Assembly (NCBI GenBank): GCA_965199825.1
Contig: OZ241329.1
Location: 2,016,001-2,080,000 of the forward strand
Length of the DNA stretch: 64,000 nt
Reading direction: 5' to 3'
Origin: Bdellovibrionales bacterium
GTDB lineage: Bacteria; Bdellovibrionota; Bdellovibrionia; Bdellovibrionales; UBA1609
Shown here: positions 10,882 to 20,754 of the stretch, piece after piece
Layout of the letters: each line of letters starts with the position of its first letter
Numbering within the stretch: the first letter of the stretch is position 1
The notes under the pieces: model-generated
Told to the model about the DNA's origin: nothing
What the model saw: the letters and a program-made list of their open reading frames with translations, nothing else
The model's database searches: none
Position numbers and translations under genes: made by a program

Positions 10882-11115
10882 ATGCAGGCGATTGAAGAAT
10901 TTGTTGCGGAAATCACATGGCTTCACGAACCCGATTACGGCGATTTTAAAAGAGCCGCAGGATTAAAGTTGTCGCGCTTAAGCTCTCAACTTCCAAAAAC
11001 CGATACGAACAAACAAATTCTTGATCAAATGAAGATGCACCTTGTGTATCACCCTTCAGGCGAAGTCGAGCCGACCCGTCATTTTCTAATTCAAAAAGCG
11101 GCCACATTGAAATGA
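10882..11115 (+). CDS. Small hypothetical protein
   Basis: AAGGAG RBS; ends next to the start of the ROK gene. Confidence 0.6.
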   Translation: MQAIEEFVAEITWLHEPDYGDFKRAAGLKLSRLSSQLPKTDTNKQILDQMKMHLVYHPSGEVEPTRHFLIQKAATLK

Positions 11116-12053
11116 AAATCTTGTGTCTCGACATTGGTGGGACAAAAATCGCAAGCGCCATTGTCGATGATCAGATGCGCACAGCCGATGTCAAAGTCGA
11201 GCCCACTCCGGTGCACATCGGACCCCAAGCGGTACTTGATCAAATTACCGAAATCGCCAAACGCACCATCGAACGCTATAGCGGCATTGCGGGAGTGAGC
11301 ATTGCATCCGCAGGCCCCTTAGAACTCGAAACAGGCTCATGGCTTTCGCCCACAAATTTTTTAACCAACGGCAAACCTTGGGGGCGTGTTGAACTTGTTC
11401 GACCGTTGCGCGAAGTCTTGGGCGTACCCGTTTTTTTAGAAAACGATGCGGCGTGTGCCGCCCTTGGCGAATTTGCGTTAGAAAAAAAATATCGCAGCAT
11501 TGCGGTGATTACACTTGGAACCGGTGTGGGCATCGGCGTGATCGTCAATGGGGAACTCGTTCGAAAAGATTTGTATGAACATCCCGAAGTCAGTCACATT
11601 CCGCTTTATGCGGGCGGAGCCATTTGCGAGTGCGGGCTCTCAGGTTGCATCGAAGCTTATTTGGCCTCCACCCATTTTGCGAGGCGCTTGAGTGAATCCC
11701 AAAAAACTTGGCTCAAAACGGGAGACGTGGTCAACGCAGCCCGAGTGGGGGAGCGCTGGGCGCTTGAAGCTTTTGATTTGTACGCCGAACATTTGGCCCA
11801 AACATTTATGATTCTAAAAACACTCTACCAACCCCAAATGATTGCGGTGTCGGGTGGGCTTGCCGCAATTTCTGAGATGTATTATCCAAAAGCGATTGAG
11901 CGCTTTGAACAGATGCGAGCCAAGATGCAAAGTGCATCAGCTCCTGTGGAGTTTAAAGTCTCACCCCACACCTATGAACTCAGTTTGTTCGGTGCGGCCG
12001 CAAAGGCGTTTCGAATGATTAGTGATTCTCCGGTGCAAAGAATCGCGACTTAG
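11112..12053 (+). CDS. ROK family sugar kinase
   Basis: LDIGGTK, ENDAACAALGE, LGTGVGIG, CECGLSGCIEAY. Confidence 0.9.
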   Translation: MKILCLDIGGTKIASAIVDDQMRTADVKVEPTPVHIGPQAVLDQITEIAKRTIERYSGIAGVSIASAGPLELETGSWLSPTNFLTNGKPWGRVELVRPLREVLGVPVFLENDAACAALGEFALEKKYRSIAVITLGTGVGIGVIVNGELVRKDLYEHPEVSHIPLYAGGAICECGLSGCIEAYLASTHFARRLSESQKTWLKTGDVVNAARVGERWALEAFDLYAEHLAQTFMILKTLYQPQMIAVSGGLAAISEMYYPKAIERFEQMRAKMQSASAPVEFKVSPHTYELSLFGAAAKAFRMISDSPVQRIAT

Positions 12054-15000
12054 TTAGTTGGCTCGTGCCGATCTCGCTAAAGAACATTTGTTTTCAATAT
12101 CTTTTTTTGAATCGACAATTGTTTGGATCAAGATTGCGGGATCGCCCACTTGAAACTGTTGGTTTCGCGCCCAGCGATTGTAATCGTCAAAACTTAACCA
12201 AACAGGCGTATTGTCTTCTTTGGGAGTTACAAACCAACCAAAAACTTTTTCAAAAGTTGAAGGTCCTTTGAAGACGCTCTTTGCCATTCGAATCTGGGCA
12301 TTTTGATCTTTATCAAAATCGATTCGGTACACACGATCAATCGATCGGCTTGCCACCGTCATTTTGGAGATACGTCCCGAGCTGTCATTCAAAAAATGAA
12401 ACCGAACCCCATTATCGTGAGATGAGCGGGTAATTTCGCGGGCTGATTTTTCTAAACACGATTTATTGTCTACAGTTTGTTGATCCTCTTCGGGCGCAGT
12501 CACTTCGGTTTCAATATTTGAAACTTGTGTTGACGGTGAGGAATCATCAAATTCCTGTAAGTCTGGATCTTCATCAAAATTGTGATTGCGTCGATCAAAA
12601 TTTCTTGGATCAAGCATATTGATTCGGATGCGATAATTCATCAACTCAGCCAGATTTTGATAACTGTTGCGAATCACAGTGCTAAACAAAACATATTGAT
12701 AGGCATCTTTGATCAAATCATCTTCGAGATACATCAAGTTTGCTCGAGCTTTACCATCGGCAAAGACCTGTCCATCGGCATGCAGCCCCTGAACAATGGG
12801 GGCGAAGCGATCGATTTCTCTATAAAGAGCATTCTCAGAAGTGTCTTGGTTTCGATCTGTTTTGTAGGGCTTAAACAAGCCGCCGCCGGTATCGGCATTG
12901 ATCCGCATTTTGAGATTTTCAACAGTGGCCTTCAAGGCATCGACTTTTTCGGGTGTTTGACCGGCCTGAAGTTGGTTTGTCAAGAACGCTTGAAAGGCTT
13001 TTTGGTTATCAGAAATTTCAGAGTTGAGGTCTCTGATCTCTTGAGGTTTGACATAGTCAGGGCGAACCTTTGCCGAGCCCAACATCTTAAATACTTTTTC
13101 GTATGTAGCGCTGAGCTTGACCATGTGGCTCTCCCAAACGGCGATGCGATTGTCTTTTTGGTCAGGCGGACTTAATTTCTCCACAAATGTCTCGGCATCA
13201 TTGAGCAAATCAAAATAAAAATTGTTTTCTTGATAGACCGATTGAATCGCACCGTAGCCCAAACTGAAGTCTTGGCTCGAGCAATTGCCTTTATGGGTAA
13301 AGTTATTTTCAAATTTGGTCCCCCCATTTGAGGGCGACGGATTTTGAAAACAGCGAAACTCTTCATTGTAAAGTGCGGGCTTTAGATTTTGCTCAACAAG
13401 GTGCTTATACTCGGCCTCAAAAATTTTGTAGGCCGGAACAACTTGAGCCAAATACACATTTTGATGCCACCACTGTTCAAAAAAGTCGTGATTGCTTTGT
13501 GAAATAATATCGGGGCGAATATTTGCCTTAATATAGTCTACAAGGTTGCCATAATGAAAACCCGAACCGTCATGAAACGCGCCGGTCACGTCAAATATCT
13601 CAAATGCTTTATGAAGAGCTTTGTTATTGAGTTGGTAATCACAAATCGTTTGTTGACCGTCATGTTGGACAAGGCTTGGTGGTAAAAATTCGATTTCAGA
13701 ATATCGATGATCCCGAATCAAATTCTGATTTTGAATACCTTCGTTCACTTGATCAGGGTTTGGTCCACAGGCCGCCGACACAATTAAATACTCACCTAAG
13801 GTTGTGGGTTTGACGAGTTCCCAACTGTTTGGGGCCTCATAGGGTTTTGAAAAGCTATTGCTTTCAGCGCGAATGGTGGTGATCGTATTGTCCCAATTAA
13901 AAAGTTCAGAGGGCGATAATGATTGGCTGTTGGATTTTGCCTCTCTTTCATCAGCAATTTTTTTAACAATTTGTTGATAAAGCGCGTAGGACTGATCATA
14001 AGCCGTCTGAAATCGTGCAATTTTAGCTGCCCACTGTTGGATGGCCGCGGTGGACCCCCCAAGTTGAAGATTGCGCCAGGCGTAGGTGCGTTGCTGCATT
14101 CTTTCGATCAACAAAGCCAGTTTATAACTTTCAAATCCATGAAATTGGTGGTCCCGAGCGGCACGGTAGTAATCCTGCACATTCGAAAAGTTTTGCTGCA
14201 AGGTTGATCCTAAGGGATCTTTTGAAAAGGCAAGGCTCCAGGTTGTGGCGAACCGTTCGGTAAACCATTTTTGCAGTGGAAGTAAGTTTGTGACTTTATT
14301 TACGGTTTGAAAAACAACGTAACTCCCCACCAAAAAAATCATCCCATAACCAAAGCGTCCCATCGCTCGTACGGTGGGAGATTTCAAAAATGCATTCGGT
14401 TTGAGTTTTAAATTGGCAAGAAAAGTGTTCGACAATTTATTGAACAAAAAAGGTGAGACCCACTGACGAACAGCATAACTTAATCCAAAATAAACACCTG
14501 TTGAGAGCATCATGTTGGTGATACTTGGAACCAAATCATTGAGGTATTGACCATTCATCCAGTTATTTCGAAAGGTGTACCAAGCTTCATCACATTTTGA
14601 GGCATCGCGCTCCCAATTGAGAGTGACAATTTTTTTCGCACTAAAGAGGCCATAGCACTGCTTCATCGATTCTTCGCTAAACATCACCCGCGAAACATCG
14701 GCTGCAACCGTGGCCGCAAATAATATCCCCGCCGTAGGGACAAGAGCTCCGAATCCGCCCTGACTTAACCGTTCTTTATAAATGTAACTACCAAAACCCG
14801 CGACAAAGCCATAGCCGGCAAGGACAAGATACAGTACGGGATTGTCCCAAGAGTTTTTAAAATCGGAGAGACTCATTGGATTGTCTTGATGATCCAATGT
14901 TGCAGCAAGACCTGCCATAATTCCCATGGATAAATAAAATGAAGTTCCCATTCGGCTTATATTGCGAACGGGTTGAACAGGGCCGGAATTCCAGGTGCGT

Positions 15001-15530
15001 TCAACAAAGCTGGGCATCTTGAGTCGTGAGGATCTTGGGTTTGAATTTTTCGATGCAGTGACCGGAGTTTTGGGGACGGGCCTTGCAATCAGGCGAGCTG
15101 ATTTTTTGTCTTTGGACAAAATGGCTTCAAATGGTTCACCACTCTCATAGAACCCAATAACTCGGTTCGGTTCGGTTGGGGTCGGAGCAAGTTCAACATT
15201 TAAAACCTTATTGTTCGGCATCTTCACGTCTGTAATAATATTTTTTGGAGCCCGAGTATTTGAAGGCTTCTCAGATTCAATATCCAAAGAAATGGCTTGT
15301 CCGCTGTCAATCAAAACGCCACGAACGCTGTGACCGTCACGATCCCAAGAAACCAGAGGTCGATTTGTTTCAGGATCTACGCCTTCAATTACCATGACGT
15401 TTTTAGGTCCATCCGGTGTGTTTACTTTTAAAAGATTTTGACCAAGCTCAAATTCTTCAGCATAGGTTTTTGCTGGCAGATTCACAGCGATCAAAGACAA
15501 AACTAAAATTCGACTAATTAAAATCTTCAT
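12054..15530 (-). CDS. Large exported protein with a hydrophobic multi-helix region and long helical C-terminal part
   Basis: ATG 15530 after GGAGAG; signal peptide MKILISRILVLSLIAVNLPAKTYA; about five Gly/Ala-rich hydrophobic segments; start overlaps the upstream stop. Confidence 0.8.
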   Translation of the reverse strand: MKILISRILVLSLIAVNLPAKTYAEEFELGQNLLKVNTPDGPKNVMVIEGVDPETNRPLVSWDRDGHSVRGVLIDSGQAISLDIESEKPSNTRAPKNIITDVKMPNNKVLNVELAPTPTEPNRVIGFYESGEPFEAILSKDKKSARLIARPVPKTPVTASKNSNPRSSRLKMPSFVERTWNSGPVQPVRNISRMGTSFYLSMGIMAGLAATLDHQDNPMSLSDFKNSWDNPVLYLVLAGYGFVAGFGSYIYKERLSQGGFGALVPTAGILFAATVAADVSRVMFSEESMKQCYGLFSAKKIVTLNWERDASKCDEAWYTFRNNWMNGQYLNDLVPSITNMMLSTGVYFGLSYAVRQWVSPFLFNKLSNTFLANLKLKPNAFLKSPTVRAMGRFGYGMIFLVGSYVVFQTVNKVTNLLPLQKWFTERFATTWSLAFSKDPLGSTLQQNFSNVQDYYRAARDHQFHGFESYKLALLIERMQQRTYAWRNLQLGGSTAAIQQWAAKIARFQTAYDQSYALYQQIVKKIADEREAKSNSQSLSPSELFNWDNTITTIRAESNSFSKPYEAPNSWELVKPTTLGEYLIVSAACGPNPDQVNEGIQNQNLIRDHRYSEIEFLPPSLVQHDGQQTICDYQLNNKALHKAFEIFDVTGAFHDGSGFHYGNLVDYIKANIRPDIISQSNHDFFEQWWHQNVYLAQVVPAYKIFEAEYKHLVEQNLKPALYNEEFRCFQNPSPSNGGTKFENNFTHKGNCSSQDFSLGYGAIQSVYQENNFYFDLLNDAETFVEKLSPPDQKDNRIAVWESHMVKLSATYEKVFKMLGSAKVRPDYVKPQEIRDLNSEISDNQKAFQAFLTNQLQAGQTPEKVDALKATVENLKMRINADTGGGLFKPYKTDRNQDTSENALYREIDRFAPIVQGLHADGQVFADGKARANLMYLEDDLIKDAYQYVLFSTVIRNSYQNLAELMNYRIRINMLDPRNFDRRNHNFDEDPDLQEFDDSSPSTQVSNIETEVTAPEEDQQTVDNKSCLEKSAREITRSSHDNGVRFHFLNDSSGRISKMTVASRSIDRVYRIDFDKDQNAQIRMAKSVFKGPSTFEKVFGWFVTPKEDNTPVWLSFDDYNRWARNQQFQVGDPAILIQTIVDSKKDIENKCSLARSARAN

Positions 15531-17148
15531 CTGCGCTCTCCGTGACATTTGTGACGCCCGAATCTACAACCCAATCGCGAACTTTTTGGTCCTTGTATCC
15601 GAACATATAAAAACCATTTATGATCGTCTCAAGCTCATTGCGATCAAAGGTCTCAACGCTTTCTAAATTCATAGATTTCATTTGCTCAAAACAAAGTGTC
15701 GTAAACAATTTGAGTAGCACCGCTTTGCCCTCGGCATTGTGTGCAAGATGTGAAGTGATTAAGTCGTTTGGAGTTTTAAGTGAGAGCTCAATTAGTTTTT
15801 GTTCTTCAAAAGAAATAGCATTGAGTGTCGCCTTTGCTTCAGTCCACATTTCTGGATCGATACGTGATCGCAATTCATTATTCTGTTGTTTTGCATCAAG
15901 ATACTCTTTGGATTGAGCTCCGTAGCTCTGAAGATAGGTTTTCATTTCATTTTCGCTGCGAGACTTTTGAGAGTAGAGGTTATAGATACGCTCGCTGTGA
16001 ATTGTAATCATCGAATCCAAAAGATCGCGACGTTTGCTCAGCTGATATTCAAGCGCTTTGTTGGAATCATATCCACGAGCTCCATCAGTTGAGCGCTCAA
16101 TAATTTTTTGAATTGCCCAATCATTTCGCAACATCGCTTGCTCACGATCGATAAGCCTTACCTTTTGCACACCCCAGGTGAGTGAATCCTTATAACTCTG
16201 TGGTAAAAAGAAATGAACAATTCCGCCAACCACTCCAGTTGCGATAGCAAATGGAAGGCTCCCAGCAGCTGCAGGTGTCACAAACAATTCGAGTCCAACA
16301 CCCGCCCCAACCATCGCTTGGACCATGCTAATGAACTCACCCGTGAGAATTGAGTTACGTAGAGTGTAGTCGATCCAATGATCGCGAAGTTCTGGATTGG
16401 CAACCAAGATCAGCTCGGCGTTGTTGATCAGCATCTTGAACAATCGTTTTTCTTCTGTGTTGCCAAGACCTGAAGTCATCTTCCAGAAACTTAAATTTTT
16501 AGCGGCAACACGATCATCGGGATCTTCGATCAGATCTGCAGACATTCGAAAAAAACTCGCCACAAATTCCCAAGTAAAAAAGGCGGCGACCGAAGTTCCA
16601 AATTTAACAATGGCAATCTCTGCTACTGAGCGGATCAAAGGTGTTTGGAGTTTTTCGCTCAGACCTAAAAAGGAATGATAGATTTGAAGAGCCAGTGGAG
16701 AGCTTAATTTTCCTGCAACAATCGAAGCAGGGAGAGGTAAATAAATTTGAAAATTGTTGGTGGCATCCACAAAAGAATCTTTGACGATTCCGGCATACGA
16801 AGACGCCGGTGCATTTTTTAATTTTGAAACATTATAGTTTTCATAACTTGAATGGAAAACACTTAAGATAAAAACCATCGCGGCTGTTGAAACGCCGTGA
16901 GACGCTCCGCCCTTTAAAGGCTCTAAACGCTCATGTTGAGCAAACTCGCGGGCTTTTTTTAGAAGCTCTGGTTCTTGATCTTTTTTAAATCCGGCAAGCC
17001 GACTTGTGAGTCCAAAAAATTTTCCATGTTTATTATTGAGCGCGGTTAAAACCGGGCCAGGGGGCTCAAAGGTCCAAACGTTTCGGGCTTGCACTCCACT
17101 TGAGTACAGCTGTGCAAAAATAATTAAAAGAGAAAGACTACTTCGCAT
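15514..17148 (-). CDS. Exported protein with Gly-rich hydrophobic helices and coiled-coil C-terminus
   Basis: ATG 17148; signal peptide MRSSLSLLIIFAQLYSSGVQA; hydrophobic hairpin MVGAGVGLELFVTPAAAGSLPFAIATGVVGGIVHFFL; overlaps the Clp gene stop by 11 nt. Confidence 0.8.
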   Translation of the reverse strand: MRSSLSLLIIFAQLYSSGVQARNVWTFEPPGPVLTALNNKHGKFFGLTSRLAGFKKDQEPELLKKAREFAQHERLEPLKGGASHGVSTAAMVFILSVFHSSYENYNVSKLKNAPASSYAGIVKDSFVDATNNFQIYLPLPASIVAGKLSSPLALQIYHSFLGLSEKLQTPLIRSVAEIAIVKFGTSVAAFFTWEFVASFFRMSADLIEDPDDRVAAKNLSFWKMTSGLGNTEEKRLFKMLINNAELILVANPELRDHWIDYTLRNSILTGEFISMVQAMVGAGVGLELFVTPAAAGSLPFAIATGVVGGIVHFFLPQSYKDSLTWGVQKVRLIDREQAMLRNDWAIQKIIERSTDGARGYDSNKALEYQLSKRRDLLDSMITIHSERIYNLYSQKSRSENEMKTYLQSYGAQSKEYLDAKQQNNELRSRIDPEMWTEAKATLNAISFEEQKLIELSLKTPNDLITSHLAHNAEGKAVLLKLFTTLCFEQMKSMNLESVETFDRNELETIINGFYMFGYKDQKVRDWVVDSGVTNVTESADEDFN

Positions 17149-19798
17149 CTTTGTGCGCTCTTTCCCTTGCTTTTGCAGGATCAAATTTACCAACTTCGGC
17201 TGCAAGCTCTCCACGACCCGACTTTAAAAAATCGGGAGTTGATAAGACTCTGGGAAACTGCACCGGATAAGTGTCGACCGGTTTTCCATCCAAGCTCAGC
17301 GAAAATTCCCCACCTTGAGAGTCACCACTGAAATCAATCTTCAAATGAGTTTTTTGAGCAAAAGGCTGGTCATTTCGTTTTCTAAAAAACTCTCTCAAAA
17401 TTTTTGATGAGATCTCTTCGTTGCTCACTCGAACCACATGGTTAAGATCGTTTGAATTTCGAACTGCAAGAAACGCCACCGCATTGACCACAGTGTCTGA
17501 GGCCTCAAAGTGAATCTTATATTTCGATTCGATCGAGGCTTTGATCCGATTGAGATGGGCGCGTGCGGTGAGTTGAGCCATTTCAAAACTCAGAGGGCTT
17601 GCCGTTAAGATCCCATCAAGATTTGCAATAAAACTATCAGTGGCATGAGATTGTGTTCTTAAAGTTTGAGGACCAATCAACTGATCGAGCCGCGAAATTT
17701 TTTGTTCTGGAGTTAAGGAGGAATCAAATGCGATGGCTTTTACCTGATCACCAGATAAATTAAATTGTTCGGCTATTTTAGTAGGAAAAAGGGGAAGATT
17801 AGACTTAAGGTCTCTGAGCATTTTGCTTTTCTGCATAGACCAATCGGCCAAAACATCAGAACTCAAGATCGTAATGCCTTCGAGCAAACTTGCAGGATTC
17901 CCATTGTTGTCGACCAATGTGTCATTCGGCGAAAATCCATCCGACAGCCACTGGCTAATTTCGGTATGAGCCATGTCGAATTTTTTAAACCAAAAAACCG
18001 AAAATGGAGTGCGTCGGATAGGCCCAGTAATTTTACCCTCGTCGTCGCTCCCTTTGTATCCAACGTTGGATCCTCTCGCAGACCAAAGATCGGTATTGTT
18101 TTGATAGTGGCTCATGTCAAATTTGAGTGGAGCGGCTTCACGACCAAAATAAGATTCATTAATCACATGTGATATCTCTTCGATTATCGCATCGCTTGCA
18201 CCGCTCACATAAAAGACCATCGCTTTGGTTTCAAGTGCGAGCCCAAAATCACGCGCTTCGAGTTTATCGACGATTGCTTTAAGAATATGATCTTGATCTT
18301 TGATCCGATCATGCCAAACTTTTTTGAGCTGATCGATACGCTGAGCTGGAGTCATCATCATAATCTTTGAGGACACATTAAATTTTTCGGCAATTGCGAG
18401 ACGGATGTCTTTTTCATTTAACATTTTGTCTTTGAGTTCGCGTTGAGTGTGCTCAGCAATTTGCTGATCAATTGAGGCGATCTGTTCATTGGCAACTTGA
18501 AGCTCAGCTCTTGCTTGTCCGAGCAGTTTGATAATTTCCTTGGTCTGATTTCGAGCTTGATAATCCAACACGTCTTCTTCGGCAAGAATACGCTTCTCGA
18601 CTTGAACTTGACGATCCAATTTGAGTTGTGGGCCTTTGCCTAAGGATTGACCTTGAGTCGCTTGATCGGCCAGCTTGTCTAAACCCTGATGCTTTAAGGA
18701 ATCACTCAGCTGCTTTTCAAGATCGGCAACCTCGTTTTTCAACATCATTTCTTGATTAAACAATTCTTGTGTTCTCTCACCCGCATTTTGTGCGTGTCGG
18801 AGATCAGCGGTTGTTCCCCAAAGTTGAGCTTTTTTGATATGAATTTGGTCGGTAAGCTTACCCACCTTTTCGTTAACCCCGAAGATATCACTGGCAGCTG
18901 CAGACAAGGCATACTCGATAACCTGTTCGACCCGAGAACCTAAGGGTTGACCGCGGAAGAGTTGGTTTGTCTGCTCAACCGCTTCGACGATTGCCTTTTC
19001 ACTGATATCGACACCGTAAATCGTTTTATAGATCGGGCGACGCACAATAAATTGATGGATGACTTCTCTCACAGAAGGTTTCTCAATGATTTGGGTCGCA
19101 CCACGGCGGGTGGCCGCTTGATCAGGTTCAATATATTTTCTGTATTCATTAAGGGTAGTACCCATTACGACTTTAAGCTGACCGCGATCCATCAGTCGTT
19201 TGATTTCGCTAATAAAAGTCTCGTTACTCATCATTTGATGAGCTTCATCGATAAACAAAACATATCTACCATTGGCGTCTTGAAGAGCTGTGAGCAGAGT
19301 GGTGATGTTTTTTTCAAGCGCACCACGATATTTTGTTCCCGAAGTGAGCATGGCGTTTTTCAAAACCAAAATCTCATAGCCCTCTCTTGCAAGAGCCTCC
19401 ATCAACGCAGTTTTTCCTACGCCTGGTTCGCCTAAAAGATAAACTCCGGCTTTGGTGTCGAGCAAAATTTTGATTTTTCTTAAATTTGCTTCGCCATTTA
19501 CATAAACATTTTTAATTTTAAATTTGGCTTCGGCAACTTTGAATTCTTTAAGCTCAGCAGCAGAGTTACTCAGTTCCAATTTTTTTAATCTTCTTCGTTC
19601 GACCGTGTACTCGCGGGTCAGGTCACGGGTAAGAATCTGAAACACATTGTCTTTTGTGATCTTTGGTCCGTCAGAGCCCTCGATCTCTCGGCCATTAGGA
19701 TCGACTCCCTCATCACTATTTGCCCCAAAGGCTGCGGGCAAAACAAATACTATTGAGAGTGCGGCAATCGCACAGGTTGTGCGCAAACGGATGAGCAT
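17138..19798 (-). CDS. ClpB/Hsp100-like AAA+ ATPase with signal peptide and degenerate NBD2
   Basis: NBD1: GEPGVGKT, TKYRG, LFIDEAH, GTTLNEYRKYIE, ATRR; long coiled-coil middle region; NBD2 scaffold (DQDH, FDMSHY, GYKG, IRRTPFSV) lacking Walker A/B. Confidence 0.9.
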   Translation of the reverse strand: MLIRLRTTCAIAALSIVFVLPAAFGANSDEGVDPNGREIEGSDGPKITKDNVFQILTRDLTREYTVERRRLKKLELSNSAAELKEFKVAEAKFKIKNVYVNGEANLRKIKILLDTKAGVYLLGEPGVGKTALMEALAREGYEILVLKNAMLTSGTKYRGALEKNITTLLTALQDANGRYVLFIDEAHQMMSNETFISEIKRLMDRGQLKVVMGTTLNEYRKYIEPDQAATRRGATQIIEKPSVREVIHQFIVRRPIYKTIYGVDISEKAIVEAVEQTNQLFRGQPLGSRVEQVIEYALSAAASDIFGVNEKVGKLTDQIHIKKAQLWGTTADLRHAQNAGERTQELFNQEMMLKNEVADLEKQLSDSLKHQGLDKLADQATQGQSLGKGPQLKLDRQVQVEKRILAEEDVLDYQARNQTKEIIKLLGQARAELQVANEQIASIDQQIAEHTQRELKDKMLNEKDIRLAIAEKFNVSSKIMMMTPAQRIDQLKKVWHDRIKDQDHILKAIVDKLEARDFGLALETKAMVFYVSGASDAIIEEISHVINESYFGREAAPLKFDMSHYQNNTDLWSARGSNVGYKGSDDEGKITGPIRRTPFSVFWFKKFDMAHTEISQWLSDGFSPNDTLVDNNGNPASLLEGITILSSDVLADWSMQKSKMLRDLKSNLPLFPTKIAEQFNLSGDQVKAIAFDSSLTPEQKISRLDQLIGPQTLRTQSHATDSFIANLDGILTASPLSFEMAQLTARAHLNRIKASIESKYKIHFEASDTVVNAVAFLAVRNSNDLNHVVRVSNEEISSKILREFFRKRNDQPFAQKTHLKIDFSGDSQGGEFSLSLDGKPVDTYPVQFPRVLSTPDFLKSGRGELAAEVGKFDPAKARERAHKDAK

Positions 19799-19844
19799 AA
19801 CAGAGGTCCTTCCTCGGAATAGAGCCATGGCTACCTAAAAGAAT

Positions 19845-19860
19845 TGCAGGCTATATGCCA
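19845..19860 (-). promoter_or_regulatory. Putative sigma54 (-24/-12) promoter of the Clp-like operon
   Basis: Minus strand TGGCATATAGCCTGCA, GG-N10-GC spacing, about 47 nt before ATG 19798. Confidence 0.7.
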
Positions 19861-19955: not shown

Positions 19956-19969
19956 CTCATTTCGAGCTC

Positions 19970-20003
19970 AAAAAAAAACACCGGCGGGATGGCCGGTGTT
20001 TTT
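19970..20003 (-). terminator. Rho-independent terminator
   Basis: Stem ACACCGGC/GCCGGTGT, 6-nt loop, followed by a T run on the minus strand just after the stop of the 242-aa gene. Confidence 0.9.
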
Positions 20004-20025
20004 GAAATAACTTTGTAAACGTAAA

Positions 20026-20754
20026 TTAGTTTGCTACAGCAGCTTTTTGGCCGTTGTCATTGCAATAGGCTTGAGCAGCCATAGTTGCGATTTGGGGTTG
20101 AACAACGCCCATACATTTTTCGCAGCTCTTGTTGTCGTTACAAGCAGGATTAACACTGCCTTCACCGAAAACTTCACAAGCACGGTTCACACCTAGGATC
20201 GCAGAAGATGCTGGGCCTAAAGCCTGAACAAATTTTTCTGCGGCTTGATTGATGTTTTGAACATGTGCCGCATTGGTAGCTGCAACAGCTTGATCAAGAA
20301 TCGCTTTCAAGTTTTTGCTCGCGTCGTTATCTTGAGACAAGATTTCAACACCATGACGATCAATAAAGTTGTCTTGAGTGACTGCAAAGTAATTTTGCAA
20401 AGAGCCAGCGATCTGTTTAACAGATTGACCGCGCTCAAGCATTGCTTTCACATCCGCTTTTTGAGCAGGATCTTTTAAAGCTGTTAGGATTTTTTCAGCA
20501 TCCGCAGATTCAGCAGGATTTGATAACGCCTTCACCAATGATGAATTTGTATTCAACTGAATCACATTTACACCCGCTGCGCTGAGTGCCGCATTGACAC
20601 GAGCTTGAGCTGTTGGCGCCTGAGTTGTTACTCTTGGTGCAACTGTCTCAACAGTTTCTGTAGGTGCGCGCATTGTAACTGCGGCGTGTGCGACAGAAGC
20701 GCCCAATAAAGCTGCCACTGCTGACATTGCTATAATCTTATTCCGTACGTTCAT
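20026..20754 (-). CDS. Secreted hypothetical protein, Ala-rich with Cys-rich C-terminus
   Basis: GGAGG RBS, signal peptide ending AHA, five C-terminal Cys, own terminator. Confidence 0.85.
   Translation of the reverse strand: MNVRNKIIAMSAVAALLGASVAHAAVTMRAPTETVETVAPRVTTQAPTAQARVNAALSAAGVNVIQLNTNSSLVKALSNPAESADAEKILTALKDPAQKADVKAMLERGQSVKQIAGSLQNYFAVTQDNFIDRHGVEILSQDNDASKNLKAILDQAVAATNAAHVQNINQAAEKFVQALGPASSAILGVNRACEVFGEGSVNPACNDNKSCEKCMGVVQPQIATMAAQAYCNDNGQKAAVAN

Follow-up and report, generated by a model that had tools for sequence, protein, structure and literature searches.

Bacterial Hsp100 proteins are regarded as residents of the cytoplasm because the periplasm lacks ATP. Why, then, would a bacterium export an Hsp100? 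The question is raised by a locus at positions 12054 to 19860 of a 64,000-nucleotide stretch of DNA from a Bdellovibrionales bacterium (assembly GCA_965199825.1, contig OZ241329.1, positions 2,016,001 to 2,080,000; hereafter the window), where a ClpB-derived Hsp100 with a predicted signal peptide (gene 1) shares an overlapping unit with two helical proteins that also carry predicted signal peptides (genes 2 and 3). A first-pass annotation, made from the sequence alone, had proposed an unfoldase-plus-pore translocon of a predatory bacterium and knew of no described bacterial system with this layout. The feature is real and conserved and has no described bacterial counterpart in the open-access papers that were searched, among which none reporting this locus or a bacterial Clp that is exported was listed. 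The translocon reading itself is a reasonable but unproven lead.

An exported Hsp100 at the head of an operon

All three genes lie on the minus strand. Gene 1 (17138-19828) is an open reading frame (ORF) of 896 amino acids (aa) with an alternative ATG at 19798, gene 2 (15514-17148) encodes an exported all-helical protein of an unnamed family, which measures 544 aa when read from its ATG at 17148, and gene 3 (12054-15530) encodes 1158 aa from the ATG at 15530, or 1164 aa from 15548. The stop/start overlaps were confirmed at 17138-17148 between genes 1 and 2 and at 15514-15530 between genes 2 and 3. On the same strand, a sigma54-type -24/-12 motif (GG-N10-GC, 19845-19860, TGGCATATAGCCTGCA) lies 16 nucleotides before the gene 1 ATG, and an intrinsic-terminator-like hairpin with a T-run (19968-20006, minus strand, -18.3 kcal/mol) lies between the operon and an upstream gene; the output of a generic terminator scan did not include the hairpin at about 20003-19971. 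Overlapping genes, motif and upstream hairpin were all found where the first-pass annotation had placed them.

The products of all three genes satisfy a heuristic signal-peptide test (basic n-region and uncharged h-region, with start codons picked among the first 60 codons; not SignalP). In gene 1 the predicted Sec signal peptide covers about residues 1-35 (19724-19828, minus strand). The same test was satisfied by 14/14 exported Clp-type proteins and by 0/12 ordinary ClpA and ClpB controls, so that, at the level of this heuristic, the earlier observation of signal-peptide-like starts on all three products is borne out and such starts are conserved in homologues. In each of the 14 exported Clp N-termini a basic n-region and an h-region of 12-15 residues precede cleavage-type motifs of small residues and then a polar linker.

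Gene 1 falls within the class 1 Hsp100 proteins but outside canonical ClpB, ClpA/ClpC and ClpV. Its two tandem AAA+ modules with Clp-type pore loops are those of class 1 Hsp100/Clp proteins, and its ClpB-like character was upheld: a profile of 12 family members found ClpB (1qvr) as its best match in the PDB (E 3e-181), followed by ClpC, ClpA and HSP101 (E 1e-136). The protein aligns to 1qvr, has a coiled-coil middle domain and a ClpB-like Walker A spacing of 410 aa; in core copies of the family the AAA modules are 376-438 aa apart, compared with 398-405 aa in ClpB and 276-282 aa in ClpA. Like ClpB and Hsp104, it has no IGF-type ClpP loop, which also sets it apart from ClpA and ClpC, whose IGF/L-type docking loop it lacks. 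However, it differs from ClpB/Hsp104 in its signal peptide, its missing Clp_N domain, an insert on the exit face and a long basic tail, and its scores against the ClpV, ClpB and ClpA models are far under the cut-offs (149 bits against 1232 for the ClpB equivalog). Clp_N was detected only in the ordinary ClpB and ClpA that the host genome (2.84 Mb, 100% complete) encodes elsewhere. The top NCBIfam match of gene 1 is ClpV/TssH, at 153 bits against a cut-off of 885; ClpV is likewise a Clp paralogue with a specialised, secretion-related task. ClpV is cytoplasmic and binds its sheath through the N-domain. The sheath protein family VipB/TssC (PF05943) was not found in the complete host genome, and gene 1 has no Clp_N.

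Two additions are specific to the family, and in the window both have approximate bounds: an insert at the position of the ClpP-docking loop in the second nucleotide-binding domain (NBD2), on the exit face (17654-17851, minus strand), and a C-terminal extension with a basic end (17141-17296, minus strand). The segment at the docking position is 72-94 aa long (130 aa in one copy) in 13 core copies compared with 51-55 aa in 15 ClpA and ClpB proteins, and the part after sensor 2 measures 95-113 aa, with a basic tail, compared with 36-66 aa in controls. Both additions are present in 13/13 core copies, the longer insert replaces the IGF/L-type ClpP-docking loop in every one of them, the middle domain is retained, and the N-domain is gone wherever the start is visible.

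The first ring of the window protein is intact, with a Walker A motif GEPGVGKT (19409-19432, minus strand), Walker B IDEAH, pore loop KYRG and the arginine finger. NBD2 is catalytically degenerate: the Walker A position reads SGASDAII (SGASDAIIEE, 18176-18205, minus strand), Walker B reads FKKFD and the arginine finger is lost, while pore loop 2 (GYKG) is retained. This degeneracy is a feature beyond the first-pass description. It is not an assembly slip, because the region is covered without any difference by a contig at depth 32, although the run behind that contig may be the window's own source. Across the family, ring 1 is intact in 6/11 copies and ring 2 in 10/12, and pore loop 2 is largely retained. 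One or the other ring is degenerate in 7/11, and both are intact in copies such as L042 and L047; all 11 full-length aligned copies keep at least one intact ATPase ring and none has lost both. Beside the genome's own ClpB, these proteins form a separate, fast-evolving group that often has one dead ring; in the tree 17 exported rows fall on one side of a branch with a Shimodaira-Hasegawa-like approximate likelihood ratio support of 97, on very long branches, several-fold longer than those of ordinary ClpB, so that attraction is possible. Conserved export signals together with retained ATPase sites imply a destination that contains ATP, most simply the prey.

To judge from predicted proteins, export of nucleotide-dependent enzymes is a habit of the order. 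Stand-alone exported Clp-derived ATPases are found in related genomes, most of them ending in a Cys-x-x-hydrophobic motif, and six have an M41-type HExxH motif. In the same genome as the window, proteins with predicted signal peptides include a PrkA-like (E 8e-7), a GTPase-like (E 1e-4) and an ABC1-kinase protein (E 3e-20), these being 3 of 23 picked candidates, most of the others without any family. Core Clps lack the Cys motif of the stand-alone AAA proteins and have the exit-face additions instead. This habit supports an ATP-containing destination, and it equally feeds the view, weighed below, that the Clp is cargo.

The six HExxH (M41/FtsH-like) proteins (L150:2562-6056, L152:6521-10390, L153:473-4021, L156:6143-9718, L157:6884-11194 and L102:2098-6111; L codes denote loci and G codes genomes) combine a signal peptide with 2-3 Clp-type AAA modules and are candidate exported ATP-dependent proteases. 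Weak AAA matches of about 800-850 aa were classed as Lon by size and match position, L161 alone being inspected. Many exported proteins of the host genome (on L162, L165, L167 and others) have Cys-x-x-(I/L)-L either immediately behind the signal peptide or C-terminally, a candidate targeting motif whose enrichment over background is not established; the PrkA-like, GTPase-like and ABC1-kinase proteins bear a Cys motif of this kind too.

Two helical partners and the Bd0173 family

The gene 2 family has 127 representatives at 50% identity and is present in 32 of the 384 genomes that make up the sample of the order. A model built from 138 sequences (predicted local distance difference test score, pLDDT, 82.7; predicted template modelling score, pTM, 0.81) is all-helical, with a hydrophobic N-terminal domain that includes a Gly/Ala-rich, near-uncharged hairpin at residues 268-315, and then 3-4 long helices. 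The hairpin (16204-16347, minus strand), whose family-mean Kyte-Doolittle values are 1.24 and 1.51 with 5% and 1% charged residues, is the best candidate for membrane insertion on these sequence grounds, and in some members it comes near ordinary transmembrane hydrophobicity. Gene 3 has a cluster of weakly hydrophobic helices at about residues 197-420 counted from 15548 (14289-14960, minus strand). The models for both partners are confident and mostly helical. The first-pass picture of Gly/Ala-rich hydrophobic helices followed by long helices in both partners is matched by the anatomy of these models, but the hydrophobicity is only moderate, with family means of 0.5-1.5 on the Kyte-Doolittle scale.

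In line with the first-pass proposal, neither partner resembles a soluble enzyme of known fold. Pfam and NCBIfam hold no family for gene 2 or gene 3, and three relatives of gene 2 are likewise without a Pfam family. Word-index protein searches with the window proteins returned only the window's own proteins, and a GTDB pattern scan with gene 1 gave no match. For the models of gene 2 and of Bd0173, the gene 3 relative introduced below, whole-chain Foldseek searches gave no match at E <= 0.001, the ESM Atlas gave none above 0.75, and whole-chain VIA-align reached Z 10.7 and 8.7, respectively, with generic helical bundles only. A fold of ClyA, colicin or SctE type, as in alpha-pore-forming toxins and translocators, did not emerge from these whole-chain Foldseek and VIA-align searches. 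The gene 2 model does align with ClyA (Z 8.1, root-mean-square deviation (rmsd) 4.2, 131 residues aligned) and XaxA (Z 5.7, rmsd 6.2, 154 aligned), in both cases over the soluble bundle rather than the hairpin. What genes 2 and 3 have in common with type III translocators and alpha-helical pore-forming toxins (ClyA, XaxAB, SctE/SctB) is soluble-type export, a Gly/Ala-rich hairpin beside long helices and two possibly paralogous subunits, but the likeness of fold is limited to generic helical-bundle scores. None of these systems is known to carry an Hsp100.

Gene 3 is, on sequence comparison, a distant member of the family of a published prey-entry protein, Bd0173. A profile made from six close relatives of gene 3 found matches in 275/384 genomes of the order, including 171/182 in the largest family, and in 0/104 genomes outside the order in a sample of the phylum. 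The HD100 member is CAE77841.1 (921 aa, Q6MRB7), which is Bd0173 because both the gene order relative to published accessions and the published length of 921 aa agree. The two are homologous over the hydrophobic and Cys-containing domains (profile E 1e-44, pairwise E 2e-8), and both genes have a sigma54-type motif upstream; gene 3 has a longer C-terminal part, and Bd0173, an uncharacterised protein, has no adjacent Clp or gene 2 in HD100. For modelling, Bd0173 was preferred to the window's gene 3 on account of its deeper alignment (125 sequences; pLDDT 82.8, pTM 0.71), giving a less confident hydrophobic helical domain at 105-330, long helices and a soluble body. Neither Bd0173 nor its neighbour Bd0172 has a Pfam family. 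Both are named in the predatosome list, with fold changes of 1.58 and 1.45 for Bd0173 (PMC2797640), and in an entry-peak proteome cluster (PMC12546842), and the proteomic data of a further report place Bd0173 in uninvaded killed prey or empty bdelloplasts (PMC11003981).

Genes 2 and 3 may themselves be distant paralogues. One profile comparison gave a probability of 63% (E 7e-5, 149 columns over the hairpin and the first long helix), and the helix order of the Bd0173 model resembles that of gene 2; two other profile comparisons were weak (7% with a second alignment). The host genome also carries a second gene 2 paralogue, which is stand-alone and highly diverged (L064:7300-8751).

A common promoter type joins the Clp to the Bd0173 family. 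Counting GG-N10-GC elements that score at least 5/8 further consensus positions, with expectations from shuffles, a sigma54-type motif precedes 12/14 exported Clp genes (0.23 expected) and 13/22 unlinked Bd0173-family genes (0.3 expected), and it stands ahead of gene 3 itself in 5/7 linked loci. It precedes 1/6 stand-alone gene 2 copies and 0/6 AAA-M41 genes. Because of this shared motif, the Clp appears to belong to the same regulon as the Bd0173 family, and in the window a Clp gene and a Bd0173-family gene are fused into one overlapping unit.

Linkage of the genes across the order

The arrangement of a Clp, then gene 2, then a large exported gene is real and conserved. The surroundings of 39 gene 2 copies were examined: an exported Clp immediately precedes the gene in 14 and does not in 18, and a contig end cuts the other 7. 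The 14 linked loci come from six genus codes within a single family, nine of them with a common electron transfer flavoprotein-ubiquinone oxidoreductase neighbour, and with the sigma54-type motif at 12/14 they uphold the linkage that the first-pass annotation had made a matter for synteny searches. Clp-gene 2 adjacency persists at 15-24% identity and across a swap of the third gene. The subgroups of the Clp and gene 2 trees agree, although vertical descent alone would yield the same.

The third gene belongs to the Bd0173 family in five intact loci (the window, L008, L043, L045 and L047). Elsewhere an exported Clp stands directly before a Bd0173-family gene without any gene 2 (L072 and L102, the latter from another family), or follows four exported ORFs with hydrophobic helices (L135 and L159, from one genome); these Clps were found without gene 2 as bait. 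A fixed three-part translocon, as first proposed, is not upheld: the third gene is swapped in one clade, gene 2 is skipped in two genomes, and the partners mostly occur without a Clp.

Several further arrangements were seen in the survey. In the clade with the swapped third gene, a Clp with a dead ring 1 and gene 2 are followed by exported proteins of about 1100, 350 and 400 aa (L056:9000-14655, L057-L060). No Pfam family was found for these alternative third, fourth and fifth genes, and homology between gene 3 and the alternative third gene was rejected, the signal peptides alone being alignable. Runs of 3-4 exported hydrophobic-helix proteins of 600-1100 aa lie beside an exported Clp or gene 2 (L135:3-8824, L159, L066:384-10003), and some of them look common to the L135/L159 and L066 loci. 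In a subgroup of gene 2 copies without Clp, the position immediately upstream is taken by a conserved protein of about 545 aa that is exported (L050:6100-7728, L051, L052, L069, L048, L071). Seven genomes that carry a Bd0173-family gene (G056, G087, G326, G336, G027, G120, G276) were scanned with the Clp profile and gave only ClpA, ClpB and frames of Lon, ClpX or HslU size, the assignments resting mostly on length, which speaks against obligate coupling. One of these, G027 (L160, L007, L096), is a single contig of 2.2 Mb with gene 2 and Bd0173-family genes and a ClpA-type match but no ClpB-sized match.

Upstream of the operon, the window encodes a 242-aa Ala-rich protein (20026-20754, minus strand), an ORF that is exported according to the signal-peptide heuristic. 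It was considered as a homologue of Bd0172, but the profile probability was 0.3% and homology was not found. Exported ORFs of similar size occur beside many related loci. Those next to the operon here (20026-20754) and at L094:7378-8079, L008:13448-14053 and L056:14950-15690 encode exported proteins of 200-270 aa that have a Cys close to the C-terminus, Bd0172 taking the counterpart position in HD100; there is no detectable homology between the groups. At the other end a ROK-family kinase gene on the opposite strand (11112-12053) abuts the end of gene 3 base-to-base, and by eye ROK-like genes occupy the same site in L043 and L108.

What the exported Hsp100 may do

The best reading, held tentatively and at somewhat less than even chances, is that the Clp is an accessory ATP-driven threading motor docked on a channel in the prey membrane. 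The operon would encode prey-directed exported proteins under sigma54 control. The three products would cross the predator's inner membrane by Sec, as their predicted signal peptides suggest, and would presumably leave the predator by an outer-membrane route. The gene 2 and gene 3 proteins would travel in soluble form and insert their Gly/Ala-rich helices into the prey inner membrane, where their anatomy and the published behaviour of Bd0173 suggest a channel or membrane platform. The Clp, as a lineage-specific accessory, would form a hexamer where ATP is available and dock through its remodelled NBD2 exit face (insert and basic tail), most likely on the gene 2 protein. As expected from Hsp100 biochemistry and the retained pore loops, it would then thread polypeptides through the platform. 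ATP is present in the prey cytoplasm, and the favoured arrangement has the motor on that side, where it would hand prey proteins outward to the predator in unfolded form. A PTEX-like inward push of effectors from the prey periplasm is less favoured, the direction being a preference only; Bdellovibrio is said to have an ATP transporter, going by the title of a reference cited in PMC13689555, and with it some ATP could be available periplasmically. We infer membrane insertion, the channel, docking, the prey location and the direction alike. A more specific proposal, in which a Bd0173-family protein-conducting channel sits in the prey inner membrane and some lineages add an exported ClpB-derived motor through the gene 2 protein, convergent on PTEX and driven by prey ATP, is on balance unlikely.

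Hsp100 rings thread substrates from the NBD1 to the NBD2 face, which is the docking side of ClpP. In the exported-protein translocon of Plasmodium (PTEX), the NBD2 face is also the side that docks on the pore, and HSP101 is anchored to the pore through its C-terminal domain (PMC7355975). PTEX and the locus described here both pair a signal-sequence Hsp100 with exported helical membrane proteins whose helices escape ordinary prediction, the membrane nature being predicted here. However, HSP101 keeps its N-domain, which the exported Clps lack, and scores below ClpB, ClpC and ClpA against the family profile; the partners here vary between lineages, and threading is an analogy. EXP2 and PTEX150 were not among the matches listed for the gene 2 and Bd0173 models in whole-chain fold searches, which are insensitive for long helical models. 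Of the PTEX likeness first suggested, the signal-sequence Hsp100 stands by the heuristic and the rest is analogy, the family profile being nearer to ClpB of bacteria than it is to HSP101. The system may function in a PTEX-like way; its membership in PTEX is not supported.

In favour of the docked motor are the 14/39 gene 2 copies directly behind an exported Clp and the finding that bait-independent Clps also stand beside exported helical proteins, along with the conserved signal-peptide pattern, the intact ring in every full-length copy, the exit-face additions, the shared sigma54-type motif, the published data on Bd0173 and the helical partner models. Several findings weigh against it. The 14 linked loci are related, all lying in a single family, and gene 2 served as the bait for most of them, 18/39 gene 2 copies have no adjacent Clp, and in six loci of one clade (L056-L060, L062) the third gene is from an unrelated exported family. 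Bd0173-family genes occur in 275/384 genomes, mostly without a neighbouring Clp: none was found beside the gene in 19/20 long loci or in 15/15 further loci (some cut by a contig end), and three Clp-less loci are at the very same chromosomal site (L107-L109). In the window Clp the second ring is dead and the branch is among the longest, and the window's gene 3 is only 17-21% identical to Bd0173. Exported Clp-derived ATPases also stand alone, so that export needs no channel partner. The earlier attribution to a predatory bacterium has in its favour a Bdellovibrionales-type host and the prey-entry member of the gene 3 family, but a predatory lifestyle is only presumed for the host family. One genome of the same order encodes a protein identical in every letter to one of B. 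bacteriovorus HD100. The in-prey detection of Bd0173 amounts to 2 peptides with a score of 0, in a sample for which the source itself admits predator contamination (PMC11003981).

A close rival of the docked motor, possible though doubtful, is that the Clp is itself cargo. It would be one among many nucleotide-dependent effectors that are exported to the prey cytoplasm, and would act there as a free unfoldase or disassembler that feeds proteases. Its way in might be a Bd0173-type channel, and timing and a common sigma54 promoter would be all that connects it with genes 2 and 3. The PrkA-like, GTPase-like and ABC1-kinase proteins exported by the same genome agree with this, as do the stand-alone exported AAA and AAA-M41 proteins of related genomes, the partners that mostly lack a Clp and the separate sigma54-type motif of gene 3 in 5/7 linked loci. 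However, cargo status does not readily account for an adjacency of Clp and gene 2 that survives divergence to 15-24% identity and a third-gene swap, for core Clps that lack the Cys motif and carry exit-face additions, or for the sigma54 motif being found at 0/6 stand-alone AAA-M41 genes.

The remaining two explanations keep the machine in the predator. It is improbable that genes 2 and 3 encode inner-membrane or periplasmic assembly factors of the predator's own envelope, with the Clp as a periplasmic ring that serves as scaffold or holdase and turns over little or no ATP. One degenerate ring in 7/11 copies, branches several-fold longer than those of ordinary ClpB and a gene 2 hairpin that in some members approaches ordinary transmembrane hydrophobicity would all suit such a role, and expression in the entry phase is just as compatible with an invasion machine on the predator's side. 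However, most of the hydrophobic helices fall under the usual transmembrane thresholds, and the exported AAA-M41 fusions with intact Walker motifs would imply an ATP-containing destination; loss of both rings in 0/11 full-length copies points the same way, but weakly, since about 0.9 would be expected if losses were independent. Quite improbable is that the N-terminus of the Clp is an uncleaved anchor and that the ATPase stays in the predator cytoplasm, powering export through a gene 2/gene 3 channel in the predator's own inner membrane. This would solve the ATP problem at once, and cleavage of the signal peptide is only predicted, by the heuristic and not by SignalP. It sits poorly with the pattern of n-region, h-region, cleavage-type motif and polar linker in 14/14 copies and with the positive-inside rule, the textbook basis for such topology, which puts the C-terminal part outside.

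The prey inner membrane is described as staying intact while the contents are digested (PMC13689555), and a tomography study saw no clear predator-to-membrane connection (10.1101/2022.06.13.496000), which leaves the route of enzymes in and products out to be explained. The locus connects an ATP motor with the Bd0173 family, which is near-universal in the order, and Bd0173 in the laboratory strain HD100 offers a direct experimental handle even if the Clp is cargo. If the more specific proposal of a Bd0173-family channel with an added motor is true, the locus would encode a bacterial machine convergent on Plasmodium PTEX and would be a candidate for how periplasmic predators reach the prey cytoplasm.

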